Assembly: GCA_963662465.1 (NCBI GenBank)
Contig: OY759599.1
Location: 7,520,001 to 7,584,000, forward strand
DNA length: 64,000 nucleotides
Reading direction: 5' to 3'
Source: Desulfatiglandales bacterium
Lineage (GTDB): Bacteria > Desulfobacterota > DSM-4660 > Desulfatiglandales > Desulfatiglandaceae
Shown here: positions 41,425 through 49,792 of the stretch, in pieces
Layout: each line of letters opens with the position of its first letter
Numbering within the stretch: position 1 is the stretch's first letter
Program-made: the position numbers and the translations under genes
Notes under the pieces: generated by a model
What the model was told of the DNA's origin: nothing
Seen by the model: the letters and a program-made list of their open reading frames with translations, nothing else
Database searches by the model: none

Positions 41425-42774
41425 TCAGACAATCCCTTTGTTTTTCCATCTGCCGCTCAAATAGTACACATATGCCGTGGCGCCCGCCAGAACGTAGCTC
41501 ATCGCCAGGCCATACCAGATCCCTTCCAGCCCAAAGAAGTGCCTGAACACAAAAATGCCCGCCACCCGCCAGGCCCATATTCCCATCACCGCGATGATCA
41601 TGCCCGCGAAATTGGCCCCCACCCCGGAAAAAAAGCTGTCCAGAATATTCATCACAACGAGAAAGAAGAGGGGAATGGCGACGATCCGGAGAAGTTCCGC
41701 GCCGCAGGCAATGGTGGCATGGGCATCCGATGACAGAAAACAGAGCATAATGCCCCTTGGAAAGAGTAGCGACGCAACCACAATGACCGATGTATACAGC
41801 AGGCAGATCTTCAAGCCCTCGACCAACCCCTGCCTGACCCGGTCGACGCTGTGGGCCCCCATGTTCTGCCCCGCCACAACGGATACACCGGCCCCAATGG
41901 CCCACGAGACGTAAAGGACGAGGTTGGTCACCGACGTGACGGCCCCGTAAGCCGCCACGGGTCCGGCGCCATATTGATTCACGAACACCTGGACCACCAG
42001 GACCCCTGAACTCGTCGCGACATTCTTGCCCCCCGATGACATGCCGAGCCTCAGGATCTGTTTCGTCACCCCCCAATCCGGTCTGAAGATGTCCTTAAGG
42101 GATGTATGAAGCACATGCGCTTTTTTTTGATACAGATAGAGCGCCACCACAAATCCCACAAACAGGGAGATGAGATAAGAATAGGCGGCCCCCGTCACTT
42201 CCAGCCTGGGAAACGGAAAAATCCCCAACATCAGGAATGGATCCAGGGCAGCGTTCACGCAAACGCTGACCCCTGAATAGATCAACGGCGTCAGGGAATC
42301 CCCGATGGCAAAAAACATGAAACCCACCAGGACCTGGATGAACAGGAAGAGAAATCCGATGCTGGTGATGGAGAGGTAGGTATTCGTTAAAGTGAGAATC
42401 GCCTCCGGCGTGTGCATCAAGCGCAGAAGCCATTCTCCGAACAGGAAAATGGCCCCGGTGGCCAGGATGGCACAGGCCCCCAAAAGCAGAAACGCGCTAG
42501 ATGCCGCCTTTTTTAATTGCCCCGTTTTATGGGCGCCGAAGTACTGGGAGATGACCGTGCCGGTTCCGATGGTCAGGCCCATGGAAAACGAGGAAATGAC
42601 CACCAGGATCACGGCCGCAATGGACAGGGCGCCCAGGGCGCTGTCCCCCAGGAACTTCCCGGCCCAGATCCGGTTCAACGTGAGATTCACGAGCTGAAGG
42701 ACGTTGCTCACCAGGAGCGGCCAGGAAAACACCAGGATTTGCTTCCGAATGTTCCCGGCCGTGAGGTCTTTCAT
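41425..42774 (-). CDS. MATE family efflux transporter
   Basis: MKDLT.GNI, multiple TM segments, SQYFGA, GDS.TPL and GQN.GA. Confidence 0.92.
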   Translation of the reverse strand: MKDLTAGNIRKQILVFSWPLLVSNVLQLVNLTLNRIWAGKFLGDSALGALSIAAVILVVISSFSMGLTIGTGTVISQYFGAHKTGQLKKAASSAFLLLGACAILATGAIFLFGEWLLRLMHTPEAILTLTNTYLSITSIGFLFLFIQVLVGFMFFAIGDSLTPLIYSGVSVCVNAALDPFLMLGIFPFPRLEVTGAAYSYLISLFVGFVVALYLYQKKAHVLHTSLKDIFRPDWGVTKQILRLGMSSGGKNVATSSGVLVVQVFVNQYGAGPVAAYGAVTSVTNLVLYVSWAIGAGVSVVAGQNMGAHSVDRVRQGLVEGLKICLLYTSVIVVASLLFPRGIMLCFLSSDAHATIACGAELLRIVAIPLFFLVVMNILDSFFSGVGANFAGMIIAVMGIWAWRVAGIFVFRHFFGLEGIWYGLAMSYVLAGATAYVYYLSGRWKNKGIV

Positions 42775-43733
42775 CAAAAAACCTCGTTGTTCTCTAGCTG
42801 TTCCCGATGGGCATCCACAAAATCTTCCATTTTCTGCCTGGATGGGAACGGACCCGTGTACTGGATGGCCATGTTGATGGAGAAGTTTTGGTGCCCCTTG
42901 GCTGGATCGATGACGCCGAAAAAGCGGGTCTGCCACAAATTGTATTTCCGGTGAAGGGCCAGGGCGCTTTCAAGAGCGGATGCTGCCACATCCGTCACCG
43001 CTTTGGTGTGGGGCCAGTGAAGGGAACACGCCTTTTTGTCCATGACGAAGGCGTTGTTGTTCAGGTACAGTCTGATCCCCAAATCAGTGTCCTCCCCGCC
43101 CCAGTGTTTATAGTCCTCATCGAATCCGCCGACCTTCAGGGCTTCAGCCTTTTCCAGGGATACATGGCAGGTCCAGAAGATCTCGAAGGGCGCGGGCCAG
43201 GTGTGGAGCTTTTCCCCCAGGAGATCATATTGATACTGCCGGATATCGAACATCTTTTGATCCTGAAAAAACCGAATACAGCCATCGGCATCTTGTGAAT
43301 CCAGTTGGCGAATGACGGGCTCAACCCGTTCGTTGGGGACATCGAAGCCGTAAACATATCCGATCATGACACAGGGAGAGGTGGATTGTTCGTGGACGGC
43401 CATATGCCTTTCAAGTGCGCCTGATGCCAGGAGCAGCCCCGTGTCCAGGAGCACCAGATATTTCCCTTCCGCAATACTCATGCCGATATTGCGCACCCGG
43501 CTGAGCCTGAAGCCCTTGTGTTCCTGCCGATAGTACCGGATGTGGAGGCGATCGCCAAAGCGGCCCACGACTTCCCCTGTTTCGTCCGTGCTGCCGTCAT
43601 CCACGATGACCACTTCAAAGCGGTCGTTTTCAAGGGTTTGACGTACAAGGGATTCCAGTTGATAGGACAAAAGGACGGCGCGGTTATACGTGGGGATGAC
43701 GACACTGATCTCTTTTACTGGTTTCTCGCTCAT
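42774..43733 (-). CDS. GT2 glycosyltransferase (paralog 3)
   Basis: SVVIPTYNR, VDDGS and GFDE..WGGED. Confidence 0.92.
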   Translation of the reverse strand: MSEKPVKEISVVIPTYNRAVLLSYQLESLVRQTLENDRFEVVIVDDGSTDETGEVVGRFGDRLHIRYYRQEHKGFRLSRVRNIGMSIAEGKYLVLLDTGLLLASGALERHMAVHEQSTSPCVMIGYVYGFDVPNERVEPVIRQLDSQDADGCIRFFQDQKMFDIRQYQYDLLGEKLHTWPAPFEIFWTCHVSLEKAEALKVGGFDEDYKHWGGEDTDLGIRLYLNNNAFVMDKKACSLHWPHTKAVTDVAASALESALALHRKYNLWQTRFFGVIDPAKGHQNFSINMAIQYTGPFPSRQKMEDFVDAHREQLENNEVF

Positions 43734-43766
43734 GTCTTCTGATAGCCCTTTTTCACCGAAATGTTT

Positions 43767-44453
43767 TCAATGGTCGTAAAGCCGCTTCACCACCTGGGCC
43801 GGATTGCCCACGGCAACACAATTCGGGGGAACCGACTCATGAACCACGGAGTTTGCGCTGACAACACTGTTGGCGCCGATTTCGACGCCCGCCAGGATGG
43901 TGGCGCCCATGCCGATCCACGCATTTTCCCGGATGGTCACGGGGTGGGCGTGGGTTCTGGCCACATCATCCTCCCGGCCCCTGTGAAGGAGCGGATGACC
44001 GTTGCTGTCCATGATGGTCACCATGGGGCCGAAGAGCGCATTTTTCTCAATGACGACCCGTTCATAGGCGACGATTGCGAGCCCCGCCAAATAGACATTT
44101 TCCCCAATTTCGATGGTCCCGGGGGATCCGTCATTGCACTTGACCAGCGTTAGCTTCACCGGCTGGTTGTGAAATGCGGGATTGAAGGTGGAATCCATGA
44201 ACACATTTTCCGCGATCCGGATCCTTCCTTCGAAATCACTCACATCAAGCGTTTGAATCTTGGCGTCTTCCTCGAAATTGTGCGAGTCCCTCTCCACCGT
44301 GTAGCAGATCCGGGGAATGCCTTCAATCCTGCAGCTCTCTGCCAAAAGGATGCCGTCTTTTCTCATGATGCCGGGCAGGGCTTCCGGCGTATAGCGATGA
44401 GCCTCTTCACAATCGGGACGACACACAAAATAGTTTTCAAAAATGGTCGGCAT
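43767..44453 (-). CDS. Hexapeptide-repeat (LbH) acyltransferase
   Basis: IMDSNGH, V.I.ENAWIG.GATIL.GV.IG.NSVV and GNPA. Confidence 0.88.
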   Translation of the reverse strand: MPTIFENYFVCRPDCEEAHRYTPEALPGIMRKDGILLAESCRIEGIPRICYTVERDSHNFEEDAKIQTLDVSDFEGRIRIAENVFMDSTFNPAFHNQPVKLTLVKCNDGSPGTIEIGENVYLAGLAIVAYERVVIEKNALFGPMVTIMDSNGHPLLHRGREDDVARTHAHPVTIRENAWIGMGATILAGVEIGANSVVSANSVVHESVPPNCVAVGNPAQVVKRLYDH

Positions 44454-44456
44454 GGG

Positions 44457-45383
44457 TCACTTCCAATTTCTGAATTTTTCAAGTCCTTCTTCGGTCTCAA
44501 CCGGCCCGATACACTTAATGGCCATGTTCAGGGAAAATTTCGCGTGCAGGTCATCCATTTCCATGTATTTGTAGAAGCTCGTCTGCCATAGCTTGTACCG
44601 CCGGTGAAGTTTCATGGCCGCTTTGGCGGATTTCTCCTTGACGTCGGCAACCTGCTTCTTGTGGGGCCAGTGAAACGAACAGATGTTCCGGTCGAAATAG
44701 AACACATGATTGTTCATGAAAAGCCTTATGGCCAGGTCCACGTCTTCCCCGCCCCAGCTGGAATAGCTGGGGTCGGACTCGCCTGAGCGGATGATTTCGT
44801 TCCTGGGGGCCGATACATGGCAGGTCCAGAAGATATCAAAGGGCGCGGGCCAGGCGTGAACATCCTCCCCCAGGGCCCGATATTGCGGTTCCCTCACATC
44901 AAAGGCTTCCTGCGCCTTTGCGACCTCGATACACCGATCCGTGTCCTCGGGATCTATTAAGGGCAGCAACCGGTCTACCTGTTCATCGGTGATCTCGAAG
45001 GCATGCACATATCCGATGACGACACAGGGAAAGCGGGACCGTTTATGCGCCTTCAAACGCAGTTCAAGTGCCTGGCTGGAGAGGAGAATCCCCGTATCGC
45101 AAAAGACCACTAATTCTCCCCAGGCCAGGGACACGCCGATATTACGGGCCTTTCCCACCGTGAAACCATGGTCTTCCTGGGACACGTACTTGATGTCGAG
45201 CCGGTCCTGAAAGCGTTCAACCACCTGACCGCTTTCGTCCTTCCCACCGTCATCCACCACAATGACCTCGAAGTGTTTCCGGGCCAGGGTCTGCCGGGCG
45301 AGGGATGTGAGGGTATACCCCAACAGCTCCGCCCGATTGTAGGTGGGCACCACCACACTGATTTTTTTAAAAAATCGACTCAT
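44457..45383 (-). CDS. GT2 glycosyltransferase (paralog 2)
   Basis: SVVVPTYNR, VDDGG, WPAPFDIFWTCHVS and WGGED. Confidence 0.92.
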   Translation of the reverse strand: MSRFFKKISVVVPTYNRAELLGYTLTSLARQTLARKHFEVIVVDDGGKDESGQVVERFQDRLDIKYVSQEDHGFTVGKARNIGVSLAWGELVVFCDTGILLSSQALELRLKAHKRSRFPCVVIGYVHAFEITDEQVDRLLPLIDPEDTDRCIEVAKAQEAFDVREPQYRALGEDVHAWPAPFDIFWTCHVSAPRNEIIRSGESDPSYSSWGGEDVDLAIRLFMNNHVFYFDRNICSFHWPHKKQVADVKEKSAKAAMKLHRRYKLWQTSFYKYMEMDDLHAKFSLNMAIKCIGPVETEEGLEKFRNWK

Positions 45384-46357
45384 GCAAAATCTTCCAATTC
45401 AGAGAGAACCGTATCCCCTTTCTCGAACTTCTCCCGGTTCTTTAAAGAGAACGCTTCGAGTTGTTTTTCATCATACCCGGGTCCCGTGAAGTGAATCGCC
45501 ATGTTGAGCGAGAACAGGGGATGTCTTTTGGGTGATCCCAAAAACCGGTAGAAGGCCGTCTGCCACAGGTTGTATCGTTCATGGAGCGCCAGACCGCATT
45601 GGTAGGTTTCTTCTTTGATGTCGCTCACGGCTTTCGGGTGGGGCCAGTGAAAGGAGGTGATGGTGTTGTCGGTATAGAAGATGTTGTTCCGCAAAAAGAG
45701 CTTGATTCCCAGGTCCACATCCTCTCCGCCCCACCGGCTGGTTTCCGCATCGAAGCCGCCCGCCTTGATCACTTCCCGTTTGTCCACCGAAAGATGGCCC
45801 GACCAGAACACATCAAAAGGCGCGGCCCAGCAGTGAAGATCATTTCCCAGTACCCGGTACTGATACTGTCTGAAATCATAGGCTTCAAACTTTTTTGCCG
45901 CTTCGATACACGTGCGGACATCGGTGGAATCGGCATAGGGAAGAATCTTTTCCACCAGTTCATTGGGCGTGTCGAAGGCGTAGATGTTACCGATGACGGA
46001 ACAGGCATGGTGAGAATTTTCGTGAATGGTCAGGTGATTTTCGAGGCCTTCCGGAGAAAGCAGAATGCCGGTATCCAGAAACAGCACGTAAGGGCTCTCC
46101 GCGTGGGCGATGCCCATGTTCCTGGCCCGACCGGCCCGAAAGCCCATGTCTTTCTGCCGTAAATAAGCAATATCCAGATGGCTGTCGTAGGAAAGGGTCA
46201 CTTCTTTTGAATGGTCGCTGCCCCCGTCATCCACAACGATCACCTCAAAAGATTTTGCGGGCAATGTCTGCCGCACCAGGGAATCGAGCGTGTAGGAGAG
46301 GAGTTTTTCCCGGTTATAGGTCGGTATGACAACGGCGATTTTCTTTTCTGATGACAT
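45380..46357 (-). CDS. GT2 glycosyltransferase (paralog 1)
   Basis: VVIPTYNR, VDDGG, W.APFD.FW and WGGED. Start at MSSEKK. Confidence 0.9.
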   Translation of the reverse strand: MSSEKKIAVVIPTYNREKLLSYTLDSLVRQTLPAKSFEVIVVDDGGSDHSKEVTLSYDSHLDIAYLRQKDMGFRAGRARNMGIAHAESPYVLFLDTGILLSPEGLENHLTIHENSHHACSVIGNIYAFDTPNELVEKILPYADSTDVRTCIEAAKKFEAYDFRQYQYRVLGNDLHCWAAPFDVFWSGHLSVDKREVIKAGGFDAETSRWGGEDVDLGIKLFLRNNIFYTDNTITSFHWPHPKAVSDIKEETYQCGLALHERYNLWQTAFYRFLGSPKRHPLFSLNMAIHFTGPGYDEKQLEAFSLKNREKFEKGDTVLSELEDFA

Positions 46358-46472
46358 GGTTTTATTTGGTATCCTTTTTGCTGTTACTCCCCGAAAAGGG
46401 TCGAATCCAGTGATCATCACATGTGATTTTGTGAAGGATCTTGGCCGGTGAACCCGCGGCCAGTACGCTTTT

Positions 46473-48359
46473 GCCATCAAAAACGTTAGAAAAATTTACG
46501 TTTTTTAACTTTCATGAAATCATTGCAAGCTCCTGAGTTAACAGCCCTAATCCTTTATTGAGGAGTGAGTAAGCAGCTTCAATTTGAGATGGTTGCTCGG
46601 CACCCTTGATAGGTTGCTTTTTGATAACCCCTGAAATCATTGGGTTTTTGAAATGGAGTTCAGAGCAAATTGAGAGCCATAGCCATTTCCAGCCTGTGTC
46701 CGTAACCCTATAGAATGACATGCTATTCTTCTTTTCGACAATTCCCCGGACCCTCAATTTGTTCATTTCATACCGGATTTGTGCAGGATTTCGAAAAGAT
46801 TGGGGGAGGCTGTTGAGAAGATCCACTGTTCTGAAGCCATATGCATGGTATTTTGGCTTTAGAAGCTCTTGGGCCAGGGCGGTCTGACGATCTTTTCTGA
46901 AGTCCGGTGGGGTCACGTTGTGGCCAAGATGATCTGAGACAGGCCTTTTGTAACGCTCCTCTTCGCCTTCTGAAATAGAGGCGATATCCACATCGGCACA
47001 GCATTCCAAGAATCGATCATTACATTCCACACCTTCCCAAAGATAGGCCTGTAGATAGAGGACAGGCTTTTTAAGCCCCAGCGATTTGGGGTTATTGATG
47101 GTGGTCTCGGTGCGGATGTAGTACCCGGTCTTATTGTACTGCTTGATGGAGTTGCCTCGGAACCAGTGTTTGATGCACGCATTATTGTCATATAGCCGCC
47201 AGAAGGTCTTGGATGTTGATCGGCGATGGAGCCGACGATTGAAAATCTGAGCAATGGTCTCGGGCAATCCGAGACGGTGGAATTTATCCAAGAGCCTTTC
47301 AAAGAGGCTGGTGCAAAAACGTGCGGAACGAAACACAATATTAGAAGAGACTTCGACCTGGCTTGAATACCAGTCGTGATAAAGAAATTTGGATCGTGTC
47401 GAATATTTTCCTTTGTCGAATTTGAAGAAAATATTCATCCAGTAGTTGATCCTGTTAAGTACAGCTCTGCCAGTGAGAGACGCAGCGGCTTTTTGAAGGG
47501 CCTCTGGATTTTCAACGTCAACAAATGCGTTTTCGTTTAGCCTGTATTTGATGCCTTGTTTATCGAGCTGGAGTTGAATGGCATTGTGGCCGTTGAAATA
47601 GAATTCTGCACGAAAAGGAAGGTAGGAAGAGATTTTGAGGTAGCAGAGACCACCGAGAAGGGCATCGTGCAAGTAGATGTAATACTGCTTCACCGGCTTT
47701 CTGCAGTCATAGATTCGTTCATAGGGCTTTCCGGCTTTTGAAGTGAGTTGCCTGCAGGCAAATGTTCTAACTGGTTCTTTGTCCGTAAGGATGCAAAACA
47801 CATGGTTCCCTTTTCCTGTAAAGGCCTTGGCGTATTTTTGTTCCACGAATTTTGACTTTGCGCCGTCAGTGCCACCCCCTTCAGAGGGCCACCAGTGAAT
47901 GGGGATATTGTTGTTCCGGGCTACCTTTTGAATATGACCATTGAGTTGGTCGGTTAGAATCCTCATTACACCGTTTGACAACCCTTTGAATCCGAGAGCC
48001 CTGAGGAGCCTGACAATGCCTGCTGGAGAAAAGAGGGAGAGAATGTAGCCTCGAATAATAACCCGATCGAAGCAGAAATATTTGAACTTGATATTTTCTG
48101 AGAATTGATTCAAAAATGAATTCTTCATGGGTGTATCCTCCGGTGAGGGAATGTTAGCTAAACAATCCATACCGGATCACCCATGAAATTTCAAATCAAA
48201 GAATGGGATTTTAGGCAGGGGGTTAAGAGACTTCAGGATGGTCAGATGACGCCAAAAGCTTCATCAACTTTAATATCCGGGATTTGCCCCGGCCAAAAAT
48301 ATAACCATCATGTCATTAGCCCCCTGCCTACAGCCCTTTTCGGAACTTTAGTTTGGTAA
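46473..48359 (-). mobile_element. ~1.9 kb insertion element without terminal inverted repeats
   Basis: Interrupts the acetyltransferase. CTTTT is present at both junctions (46468-46472, 48360-48364), with a subterminal hairpin at 46479-46505. Confidence 0.85.
46512..48128 (-). CDS. Putative transposase of unclassified type with C-terminal winged HTH
   Basis: Sole ORF of the insertion. Motifs CFDRVIIRG, YY.Y..D...G.CY.KI..Y.PF....YFNGH and IKQYNK....R.ETT.N; MarR-like C-terminus; SD GGAGG. Confidence 0.7.
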   Translation of the reverse strand: MKNSFLNQFSENIKFKYFCFDRVIIRGYILSLFSPAGIVRLLRALGFKGLSNGVMRILTDQLNGHIQKVARNNNIPIHWWPSEGGGTDGAKSKFVEQKYAKAFTGKGNHVFCILTDKEPVRTFACRQLTSKAGKPYERIYDCRKPVKQYYIYLHDALLGGLCYLKISSYLPFRAEFYFNGHNAIQLQLDKQGIKYRLNENAFVDVENPEALQKAAASLTGRAVLNRINYWMNIFFKFDKGKYSTRSKFLYHDWYSSQVEVSSNIVFRSARFCTSLFERLLDKFHRLGLPETIAQIFNRRLHRRSTSKTFWRLYDNNACIKHWFRGNSIKQYNKTGYYIRTETTINNPKSLGLKKPVLYLQAYLWEGVECNDRFLECCADVDIASISEGEEERYKRPVSDHLGHNVTPPDFRKDRQTALAQELLKPKYHAYGFRTVDLLNSLPQSFRNPAQIRYEMNKLRVRGIVEKKNSMSFYRVTDTGWKWLWLSICSELHFKNPMISGVIKKQPIKGAEQPSQIEAAYSLLNKGLGLLTQELAMIS

Positions 48360-48880
48360 CTTTTCGGGAATATCGTGGGTGACAAGTGAACCCGCGCCGA
48401 TCACCGAATGATCCCCGATGGTGACGCCCGGCGCGATCATGGCCTGGGAGGCAATCCAGACGTTGTTTCCGATTCGAATGGGCCCCACATGCGTCGCCCC
48501 CCCCCTGCTCCACCGGATGGAACGCGGTGTCCAGAATGGTCACCCAGTCTCCAATGGCGCAGTGCCGGCCGATTTCGATGGATTCCACGGCACAGATGTT
48601 GGCGCCGTCATTCAGGGCCGTGCAGTCACCAATGGACAGAATCGCATCAGGGTTGAAAACCGTGATGTGGCTTCGGACTCTCACCCCCATGAAATTGACG
48701 TCCCTGCCGAGTTTTAGTTTTCCATTGAGTTCGAAGATGGGAAAGAGTCCCGAAAAGGTGGGACGATTCACATACTCGACGTCACACCGGTAAAACTTTC
48801 GTCGTTTATATGCGTGCTCTAACAGAGAAATGAGATGGATCACCACTTCCTCCCATGTTCAACCCGGGAAACCGGAGCAT

Positions 48881-49792
48881 TCAGCGCAGCACGTCCTGAT
48901 ATTTGCGGATCAGATCGTAGCGGTGCCTGTAATATTCATGTTCCAGAATCATTTGATAAAAATACGTGCGCTCATCCCCTAACTTGATGGAATCATGGGG
49001 CCTCAAAGCCATGCCGACAAAATAGTTAATGCTGAAAATTCCCCGGCACGATTCGGAATCGCTTTTCAGCTCGTGGGCGGCAAACTGTCGTTTTTTTTCG
49101 GCGGTGTAATTGGAGGGGACTCGCGCCAGGGCGATGGAATAGCCGCTGCCGTAGACACGCCGAAAAATATGAATGGCACGAATGGCATGAAAATCAGACG
49201 TGACCAACATCAGTTTTCCCGAGGGCGCCAACAGCTTTTTTTGCCTTAGTTTCAATTTTGAAAGCACCGCATTGCCCACGGTATCAATGGAATCATCCTC
49301 AATGACAACCCTCTCGGGGGTCAGGCCAAGGTCATCTTGCGATTGCAGAAACGCCAACATCTGTTCCGACTCCGTCTGTTGACACATGAATCCCCCGCCG
49401 CACAGAATGATAATCGCTTTGGGGCGGTTACGGATGAACCGCACGGCATGACGCGCCCGATCCAGCAAAATTTCCATATGTTTGGAGGCCAGCACAAAGA
49501 TGTAGTCCGCATGGTAGAGTACGTCTGAATCGCCGATGACGTCATTGTCTTCAAAATAGGTCAAATAAAAATCGAGGATCTCCTCCCGTTTCCGATCCAA
49601 CTTCCGGATGACATCCGTGAACAGTTCGGGTTCAACATGAATCGGAATCAGCCGGTGCAGCCATGCCAGTACCGACTCAAGCACCTGATAATGTTCGTCG
49701 AGCGCTCCGTTCGGCAGCCAGTTGGGATATTCATTCGGATCCAGCCGCTCACAAAACGCCATCAAATCATCGATTAATCTGTTGTAACTCAT
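48881..49792 (-). CDS. YdcF/ElyC (DUF218) family protein with N-terminal extension
   Basis: IILCGG, TESEQM, IEDDSIDTVGNA and LVTSDFH..RA. Confidence 0.85.
   Translation of the reverse strand: MSYNRLIDDLMAFCERLDPNEYPNWLPNGALDEHYQVLESVLAWLHRLIPIHVEPELFTDVIRKLDRKREEILDFYLTYFEDNDVIGDSDVLYHADYIFVLASKHMEILLDRARHAVRFIRNRPKAIIILCGGGFMCQQTESEQMLAFLQSQDDLGLTPERVVIEDDSIDTVGNAVLSKLKLRQKKLLAPSGKLMLVTSDFHAIRAIHIFRRVYGSGYSIALARVPSNYTAEKKRQFAAHELKSDSESCRGIFSINYFVGMALRPHDSIKLGDERTYFYQMILEHEYYRHRYDLIRKYQDVLR

Follow-up and report, generated by a model that had tools for sequence, protein, structure and literature searches.

Transposons known to move through single strands (IS91/ISCR, IS200/IS605, Helitrons, and Replitrons) all use HUH enzymes in the portions of the literature available to us, where Rep_trans proteins figure only as initiators or relaxases of plasmids, phages, and ICEs (integrative conjugative elements). 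According to the available text, Rep_trans enzymes adopt the fold of the TATA-binding protein (TBP), the RepDE residues named being D46, D142, Y191, and E214 (PMC13107129), and their motifs are the Asp of motif N', RxD, T/SxY/ExG, YxKxxE on a strand, and W/LxRxE (PMC5714925). Here, we analysed a stretch of 64,000 nt from a Desulfatiglandales bacterium (GCA_963662465.1, contig OY759599.1, positions 7,520,001 to 7,584,000; hereafter the window), in which a 1.9-kb segment interrupts an acetyltransferase gene. This segment (46467-48359) is, practically beyond doubt, a real insertion sequence (IS), and it probably represents an undescribed transposon class. Our preferred reading, to which we attach moderate confidence, is that of an autonomous IS of a widespread and unannotated family, whose protein joins a winged helix to a tyrosine nickase-ligase of Rep_trans type (TBP fold, no HUH) and which moves by rolling-circle copy-out via a single-stranded circle. 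A search of the open literature, with ISfinder and subscription journals outside its scope, found no description of an IS with a Rep_trans-type transposase; that the family has been described before is unlikely, if far from negligible.

The ends of the IS are defined by an exact empty site. In a contig of sequencing run X1, position 46466 is joined straight to 48360 and 1,893 nt are absent, while both filled junctions are bridged in run X2 of the same sample. An earlier note on this DNA, made from the sequence alone, had placed the ends at 46468 and 48364, which the empty-site contig shifts to 46467 and 48359. That the segment splits an acetyltransferase gene whose halves rejoin in frame was read correctly, but the rejoined peptide had been given as D-I-P-E-S-V-L-A-A-G-S-P-A; because the joint lies at 46466/48360, the empty site reads E-K-V in place of E-S-V (D-I-P-E-K-V-L-A-A-G-S-P-A). 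The GC content of the IS (44.8%) differs from that of its flanks (52.6%). Further signs of movement come from other sites. A second site ~70 kb away is empty in the assembly, and a contig of run X2 attaches the 3' end of the IS there at the matching target AAGAT^TTATA, as seen in one contig and one junction with only 30 flank letters visible. An empty-site search for other loci among the collected sequences was successful for 1 of 43, a copy nested in the transposase gene of a relative (L117), whose joined flanks align ungapped over 120/120 columns. Two internally deleted derivatives of ~0.7 and 0.4 kb (L197 and L207, respectively) have kept both ends and the NTA target. The IS is mobile, and recently so, and it appears to be active in the current sample.

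The ends common to the family were set from 40 species-genome loci, the best 80 of 145 metagenome loci, and 4 genome pieces; the 5' motif was present in 92 and the 3' motif likewise in 92 of these 120 loci and 4 pieces. Relatives start with the consensus TTACCAAACT.AAGTTC and finish with AAAAACG-N13-CGTTTT-N-AAAGC. As the earlier note had stated, there are no terminal inverted repeats (TIRs), the 5' end TTACCAAAC being unlike the complement of the 3' end. A short TIR, TTACCA...TGGTAA, considered from one genome copy, was dropped, as the relatives place the end further out, at AAAGC. Of 73 non-redundant junctions, 71 have the trinucleotide NTA directly 3' of the IS (TTA 31, ATA 30, CTA 6, GTA 4; end-to-end junctions and three loci with the pattern on a non-standard end are left out of this count), with TA at a background of 0.04. 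At the other side, the 5' flanks (n = 74) have A at -5 and at -4 in 66% each and T at -1 in 68%, and TA occupies element positions 2-3 in 74/74 non-redundant 5' junctions, positions that the search pattern had left free; the genome holds four such 5' ends. The target consensus AAWWT^WTANC and the joined ends AAAGC^TTACC are alike on both sides of the cut, in line with the suggestion of the earlier note that the element end mimics its target.

The IS also lacks a target site duplication (TSD), as judged from both the relatives and the empty-site contig. Of 47 two-ended copies, 25 have no flank duplication at all, 15 have one of 1 nt, 6 one of 2 nt, and a single copy one of 3 nt, and this variation means that there is no fixed TSD. 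The duplication of up to AAA once proposed for this site does not exist: AAAAGC is the conserved end of the IS itself, and the AAAAG of the other junction is target DNA. A duplication of TA or NTA was ruled out, since only 21 of the 47 loci have the same base at the start of the element and at the start of the flank, and the empty allele is exact. The copies gathered, a step the earlier note had proposed, define both ends and the NTA consensus without revealing TIRs. The ends of the IS are fixed and asymmetric, it lands 5' of NTA in a single orientation, and the two ends are directly joinable. Two of seven contigs tested for circularity (L012 and L109) are circular with an end-to-end junction and terminal overlaps of 55 and 123 nt, respectively; the unit of L012 is exactly the element, and in that of L109 the 5' end is doubled. 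Each contig may stand for a free circle or for copies in tandem. In four loci (L082, L087, L099, and L107), the copies lie in a palindromic repeat, GGGGTCAGGTCT...AGACCTGACCCC, which is possibly a preferred target.

A single open reading frame (ORF) of 538 aa fills most of the IS (ATG 48128, stop 46512, minus strand), as in the earlier note. Its predicted structure (pLDDT 88.7 overall, 92.7 for residues 1-385) shows a TBP-like fold over residues 7-381, followed at residues ~388-506 by the winged helix that had been suspected (Z 9.8, rmsd 3.5, 90 aligned). In the VIA comparison of residues 1-385, with matches over 13-384, the best rows are five TBP structures (Z 8.7-7.0; top row: rmsd 3.7, 180 aligned), followed by RepDE 4cwc (Z 6.6, rmsd 5.2, 175 aligned) and, behind a phosphoglucomutase, by RepSTK1 4cij (Z 6.4, rmsd 4.6, 192 aligned). 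Foldseek placed a Rep_trans initiator first in both searches (4cwe, E 3.6e-3; 4cij, E 4.1e-3, probability 0.95), with Rep_trans matches overall at probability 0.87-0.96 and E 0.004-0.02. The residues of note in the predicted catalytic domain are D21, Q257, E259, K329, Y331, K333, R339, and E341; D21, Q257xE259, Y331xK333, and R339xE341 follow each other in the same order as the Rep_trans motifs. Counted over the 39 most distant rows of an alignment of 110, D21 is kept in 38, Q257 in 38, E259 in 37, Y331 in 39, K333 in 37, R339 in 39, and E341 in 39. The KQYNK....R.E stretch that had been likened to Rep_trans initiators is thus present and conserved, with Y331 on a predicted beta strand (326-333), and D21, E259 of the QxE, and E341 form a candidate metal triad, conserved and in motif order. 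The best profile alignment of the catalytic halves lets Y331 and RxE fall on their RepSTK1 counterparts; its score is 20.9, where 30 column shuffles reach 15.2 at most and reversal gives 11.0. The model therefore describes a protein that is Rep_trans-like by fold and motif order, yet without significant sequence similarity and not a member of PF02486, and Rep_trans-type tyrosine chemistry is very likely.

The same data bear on the idea that the IS belongs, as a diverged member, to one of the DDE or HUH IS families already known. Three conserved acidic residues would suit a DDE enzyme, but described DDE insertion sequences have TIRs and a fixed-length target duplication, neither of which is found here. 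An RNase H or DDE fold, which the earlier note had named as the result that would speak against its reading, did not appear; the predicted TBP-like fold spans residues 7-381, Rep_trans initiators are among the best matches, and RNase H is not among the matches listed. The absence of an HUH motif was likewise borne out, as the family alignment has no conserved HxH and its sole conserved His is H181 in NGH. Pfam, NCBIfam, and PHROGs contain no significant match to the IS protein, transposases included, a PDB sequence search returned nothing under E 1, and the ESM Atlas only unnamed clusters. Relatives from among the 110 aligned (41 searched with Pfam and 31 with PHROGs) gave only winged-helix or scattered weak matches. 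Membership in a DDE or HUH family is largely refuted and hardly conceivable.

Several observations weigh against our preferred reading. All Foldseek matches in the PDB lie above E 0.001, with TM-scores of 0.17-0.36 and rmsd values of 12-22 Å, and VIA scores TBP itself above the Rep proteins, where a Z below 8 can reflect a common arrangement. The catalytic-half profile alignment reaches a probability of only 5.6% (P 0.0068) and used trimmed alignments, while whole-profile comparisons with RepSTK1, the RepSTK1 family, and HRPV-3 ORF9 (taken as a Rep-Arvir member by assumption) gave no match. The Rep_trans family PF02486 has no Pfam match in the IS protein, 41 relatives, and 7 further loci, and none in the genome. 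Motif II (T/SxY/ExG) is not evident in the alignment, where the HWFRGNS region is variable, nor is the Glu of YxKxxE; RxD is replaced by QxE; the gap between D21 and E259 measures ~240 residues vs. 107 in RepSTK1; and the invariant E118, Y150, Y152, N179, and N200 have no explanation in Rep_trans terms. Outside the protein, the circular contigs are possible tandem dimers and silent on strandedness. Runs X1 and X2 come from one sample, probably the source of the assembly, and consequently the empty allele shows heterogeneity within the sample and no independent occurrence. In the long stretch that separates the first Asp from QxE, E118, Y150, Y152, D155, N179, H181, and N200 are strongly conserved with no assignable Rep_trans counterpart; Y150 or Y152 could be a second nucleophile.

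The closest described proteins are the Rep_trans initiators and MOBT relaxases (PF02486: RepC/RepD, RepSTK1; 4cwc, 4cwe, 4cij), with which the predicted IS protein has in common the TBP-like fold, the Tyr on a strand, and the order Asp, RxD-like, YxK, RxE. It differs from them in the lack of a sequence-level match, the QxE, the longer insert after the first Asp, and the C-terminal winged helix, and in being the sole gene of an IS instead of part of a plasmid, phage, or ICE. Archaeal Rep-Arvir proteins (DUF7845/PF25227; SNJ2 ORF19) resemble it as well, as far as the available text goes: a TBP fold with a MarR-like winged helix, three acidic residues and a Tyr in the same order, a conserved repeat downstream of the gene, and two viral Foldseek matches in common, A0A2N9QVX7 and A0A345MNV4, of which that text calls one a viral TBP and the other a Rep_trans protein of an inovirus (PMC13107129). 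Unlike the IS family, whose named hosts are bacterial, Rep-Arvir is, by the description in that text, confined to archaea, where viruses, plasmids, and integrative elements carry it (PMC13107129), and DUF7845 (PF25227) has no Pfam match in the IS protein or 41 relatives. Rep-Arvir, which according to the same text replicates viruses and plasmids with a TBP fold, a winged helix, and a downstream hairpin origin (PMC13107129), lends some plausibility to the view that the ORF is no transposase but starts the replication of a minimal plasmid-like circle that integrates, or is a passenger that some other enzyme moves. Yet the IS has no other gene, occupies dozens of unrelated sites with constant ends, and leaves deleted derivatives that retain both ends; ends and protein travel together from Desulfobacterota to Actinomycetota and Burkholderiaceae, and the phage collection contains no match. 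This view is very improbable.

Mechanistically, the nearest parallel is IS91/ISCR, which, in the available parts of the sources, lacks TIR and TSD alike, inserts in a fixed orientation 5' of a short target, and has a single ORF and a circular intermediate (PMC5714925, PMC10288648). These sources also describe an HUH enzyme with a helical Tyr and a tetranucleotide target (PMC5714925, PMC10288648), vs. a non-HUH protein with a predicted TBP-like fold and an NTA target here. Helitrons, Replitrons, and IS200/IS605 resemble the IS in tyrosine single-strand chemistry (predicted here), the usual lack of a TSD, and subterminal palindromes, but in the literature available they are all HUH systems, Helitrons carry a helicase, and Helitrons and Replitrons are eukaryotic; the IS200/IS605 transposase is a small HUH Y1 enzyme, vs. 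538 aa with no HUH and no family match here. In its position ~12 nt from the end, the 3' repeat is reminiscent of the Helitron terminator. What we propose follows IS91 and Helitrons in its logic, but not in the fold of its enzyme. The winged helix would bind the subterminal repeat(s), and Tyr331, with a metal held by Asp21, Glu259, and Glu341, would nick one strand at one end and remain attached to the 5' phosphate. Starting from the free 3'-OH, host replication would displace the nicked strand, a second cut at the other end would release a single-stranded circle closed with the junction AAAGC|TTACC, and the enzyme would then cut a junction-like chromosomal site, AAWWT^WTANC, and exchange strands, so that no base is gained or lost. 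By analogy with Rep_trans and HUH chemistry, such a single-bond exchange without loss would suit a tyrosine nicking-closing enzyme.

The same enzyme might instead act by peel-and-paste as in IS200/IS605, cutting one strand at both element ends at a replication fork so that a single-stranded circle leaves and the donor is resealed precisely. Exact empty and filled alleles occur together in one sample, stem-loops or palindromes lie near both ends also in distant relatives, and the target supplies a motif at one end only, all as this mechanism would have it. However, the empty allele may equally stem from cells that never carried the insertion, relatives with the Rep_trans fold prime replication in the available descriptions (PMC5714925, PMC13107129), and duplications on two plasmids run from the exact 5' end through the 3' end as read-through would, albeit each is otherwise explicable. 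Peel-and-paste is unlikely, and we lean towards replicative copy-out over plain single-strand excision with modest confidence; the single-strand or rolling-circle class envisaged in the earlier note is supported, its link to Rep_trans by fold and motif order.

Within the replicative reading, the 3' and the 5' end are about equally probable as the origin. The inverted repeat near the 3' end has a fixed spacing and resembles a dimer binding site, and the ori of IS91 likewise lies downstream. For Rep-Arvir, the text available describes an essential replication element downstream of the gene (PMC13107129). Pointing to the 5' end, two copies on a Burkholderia plasmid have 7,458 identical bases in common, from the exact 5' end past the 3' end as far as an IS66, and the sequence common to two Rhodococcus copies likewise starts at the 5' end, with IS66 rearrangement and linear-plasmid arm exchange as rival causes. 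Copies truncated at the 3' end seem to outnumber those truncated at the 5' end, and NTA lies within one base at only ~3 of 10 truncation junctions, which is near chance (both by eye). Pairs sharing one flank occur in both directions (2 and 1 of 43 loci) and are possible assembly chimeras.

The non-coding parts of the IS (Table 1) hold further conserved features. The hairpin of the earlier note corresponds to the inverted repeat AAAAACGT-N11-ACGTTTTT, which lies 12 nt, not about 6 nt, inside the end. Because the distinct 3' ends compared show no compensatory changes, this repeat may be a protein-binding site rather than a hairpin. A 140-nt segment between the 5' end and the ORF folds with z = -4.85, and across 27 relatives both sides change in 17 of its 29 pairs, a number reached in 0 of 500 shuffles and far from reached in slid controls, with the reservation that the structure was drawn from the same alignment and that relatedness inflates the shuffle test. 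It is present in 53 of 61 full-length elements and missing from 8, including a lineage found at several sites (by eye), and hence is not always needed in cis. There was no Rfam match. A covariance model matched only the four 5' ends in this genome, and in 150 other genomes it gave one clear match, to an orphan 5' end, and four weak ones. The segment might serve as a second-strand origin, insulate against read-through, or work as an RNA that circles give rise to. Downstream of it, the pattern TTGA..-17-TAT.. of the candidate transposase promoter recurs in 48 of the 61 full elements, while a consensus scan makes no promoter call.

Joining the ends of the IS creates a second promoter-like sequence, TTGATG-17-TAAAGT, just before the 140-nt structure; over 42 junctions, its boxes have on average 3.4 and 3.6 of 6 consensus matches, a moderate conservation. 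A promoter formed at the junction would fit double-strand excision to a circle followed by site-specific recombination at a short TA core, as in IS110 or tyrosine-recombinase elements, with the Rep_trans-like tyrosine as catalyst. The likeness of target and junction on both sides of the cut and the occasional non-T as first base of the 5' end (9/74) agree with this. Against it, the base after the 3' end varies by site within a lineage while the 5' T is kept, which fits one fixed cut bond; moreover, many junctions have G as second base of the -10 box, distant relatives show no junction promoter by eye, and no recombinase fold is among the top structure matches. Double-strand recombination is accordingly improbable. 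Also improbable is a combination of a new transposase class with a structured nucleic acid that functions only after circularisation, in which the junction promoter would start at the first base of the 140-nt structure, and an RNA, or a DNA structure of the displaced strand acting as second-strand origin, would be a working part of the Rep_trans-type machine. The idea has a likeness in IS110, whose circles switch on their bridge RNA.

Table 1. Features of the IS and of the interrupted gene (window positions).
Feature	Position	Strand	Remarks
Whole IS	46467..48359	-	1,893 bp; defined by empty-site joint, both filled junctions, and ends common to relatives
5' end TTACCAAACTAAAGTTCCGAAA	48338..48359	-	Short palindrome AACT-RA-AGTT; begins (T)TA
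Structured non-coding segment (140 nt)	48201..48341	-	Long basal stem, three-way junction, two hairpins
Candidate transposase promoter TTGAAA-17-TATGGA	48166..48194	-	Putative; downstream of the 140-nt structure
Transposase, 538 aa	46512..48128	-	~7-385 TBP-like/Rep_trans-like catalytic domain (predicted); ~388-506 winged helix; C-terminal helix
Subterminal inverted repeat AAAAACGT-N11-ACGTTTTT	46479-46505	.	12 nt inside 3' end; spacing fixed in relatives
3' terminus AAAAGC	46467..46472	-	Conserved in relatives
Target trinucleotide GTA (NTA motif)	46464..46466	-	Host DNA directly after IS 3' end
Acetyltransferase, upstream part	48360..48846	-	Hexapeptide-repeat; interrupted by the IS; frameshifted near 48500
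Acetyltransferase, downstream part	46362..46466	-	VLAAGSPA... to stop

The family is large. Scoring of 8,000 candidates yielded 399 matches, the family comprises 1,904 clusters at 50% identity, and 18 of 301 genomes sampled from the phylum contain a match. Named close relatives are mostly Desulfobacterota bins, and 16 plasmid records from Rhodococcus, Burkholderiaceae, and mycobacteria hold relatives at 21%-34% identity, labelled hypothetical protein or ArsR regulator in RefSeq/GenBank. Relatives in Burkholderiaceae and Mycobacterium keep the same end plan at 21%-23% identity; pairs of plasmid copies from Caballeronia and Mycobacterium riyadhense start with CTA, have stem-loops near both ends, and are followed by the target CTAG after the 3' end. 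One plasmid (NZ_OY970457.1, L121) carries two divergent members side by side at 143-147 kb and six matches in all. No relatives were present in 50,697 phage records, and a search with close relatives found none on viral contigs. As the family is annotated as hypothetical or regulator, mobilome inventories miss it, and specialists would be surprised by an IS family that is large, active, and unannotated and whose enzyme has a fold not yet known from transposases. If the preferred reading is true, transposition has arisen independently from a second, unrelated class of rolling-circle nickases. Insertion is scarless at a three-base motif and requires a single protein of 538 aa, together with ends that measure a few dozen bases; being scarless, dependent on a single protein, and seemingly active, the IS is directly testable. 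If one end were leaky, it could also carry neighbouring genes.

The genome holds further family copies, one split by a nested insertion, two shortened, and two present as fragments. Copies and fragments all lie within ~1.1 Mb (7.00-8.12 Mb) of the 8.2-Mb chromosome, which hints at local hopping. The nested insertion (6.5 kb, 7334432-7340956) has ordinary TIRs, a 10-bp duplication, and further transposase-like ORFs. Inserts of ~50-100 bp resembling miniature inverted-repeat transposable elements, often bounded by CCTGCCCGC...GCGGGCAGG, repeatedly break family copies and other places (L006, L017, L018, L020, L024, L036, L037, and L110). At the 3' ends of three loci (L023, L112, and L113), the last 22 or 13 bases of the IS are repeated from an internal TTA, and the extended end of L112 and L113 is present at two different sites, which suggests insertion into the tail of a sister copy that later moved as a unit.

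The interrupted gene is identified as an acetyltransferase by a weak Hexapep match (E 0.21) and a clear intact paralogue at 43767-44453. Its frameshift, at a run of C (48497-48505), is independent of the IS insertion, and contigs of both runs, including that with the empty allele, match the assembly there. The surrounding region (41425-49792) contains three family 2 glycosyltransferase-like genes, two hexapeptide acetyltransferases, a DUF218 gene, and an exporter gene, which we take to be MATE-like.

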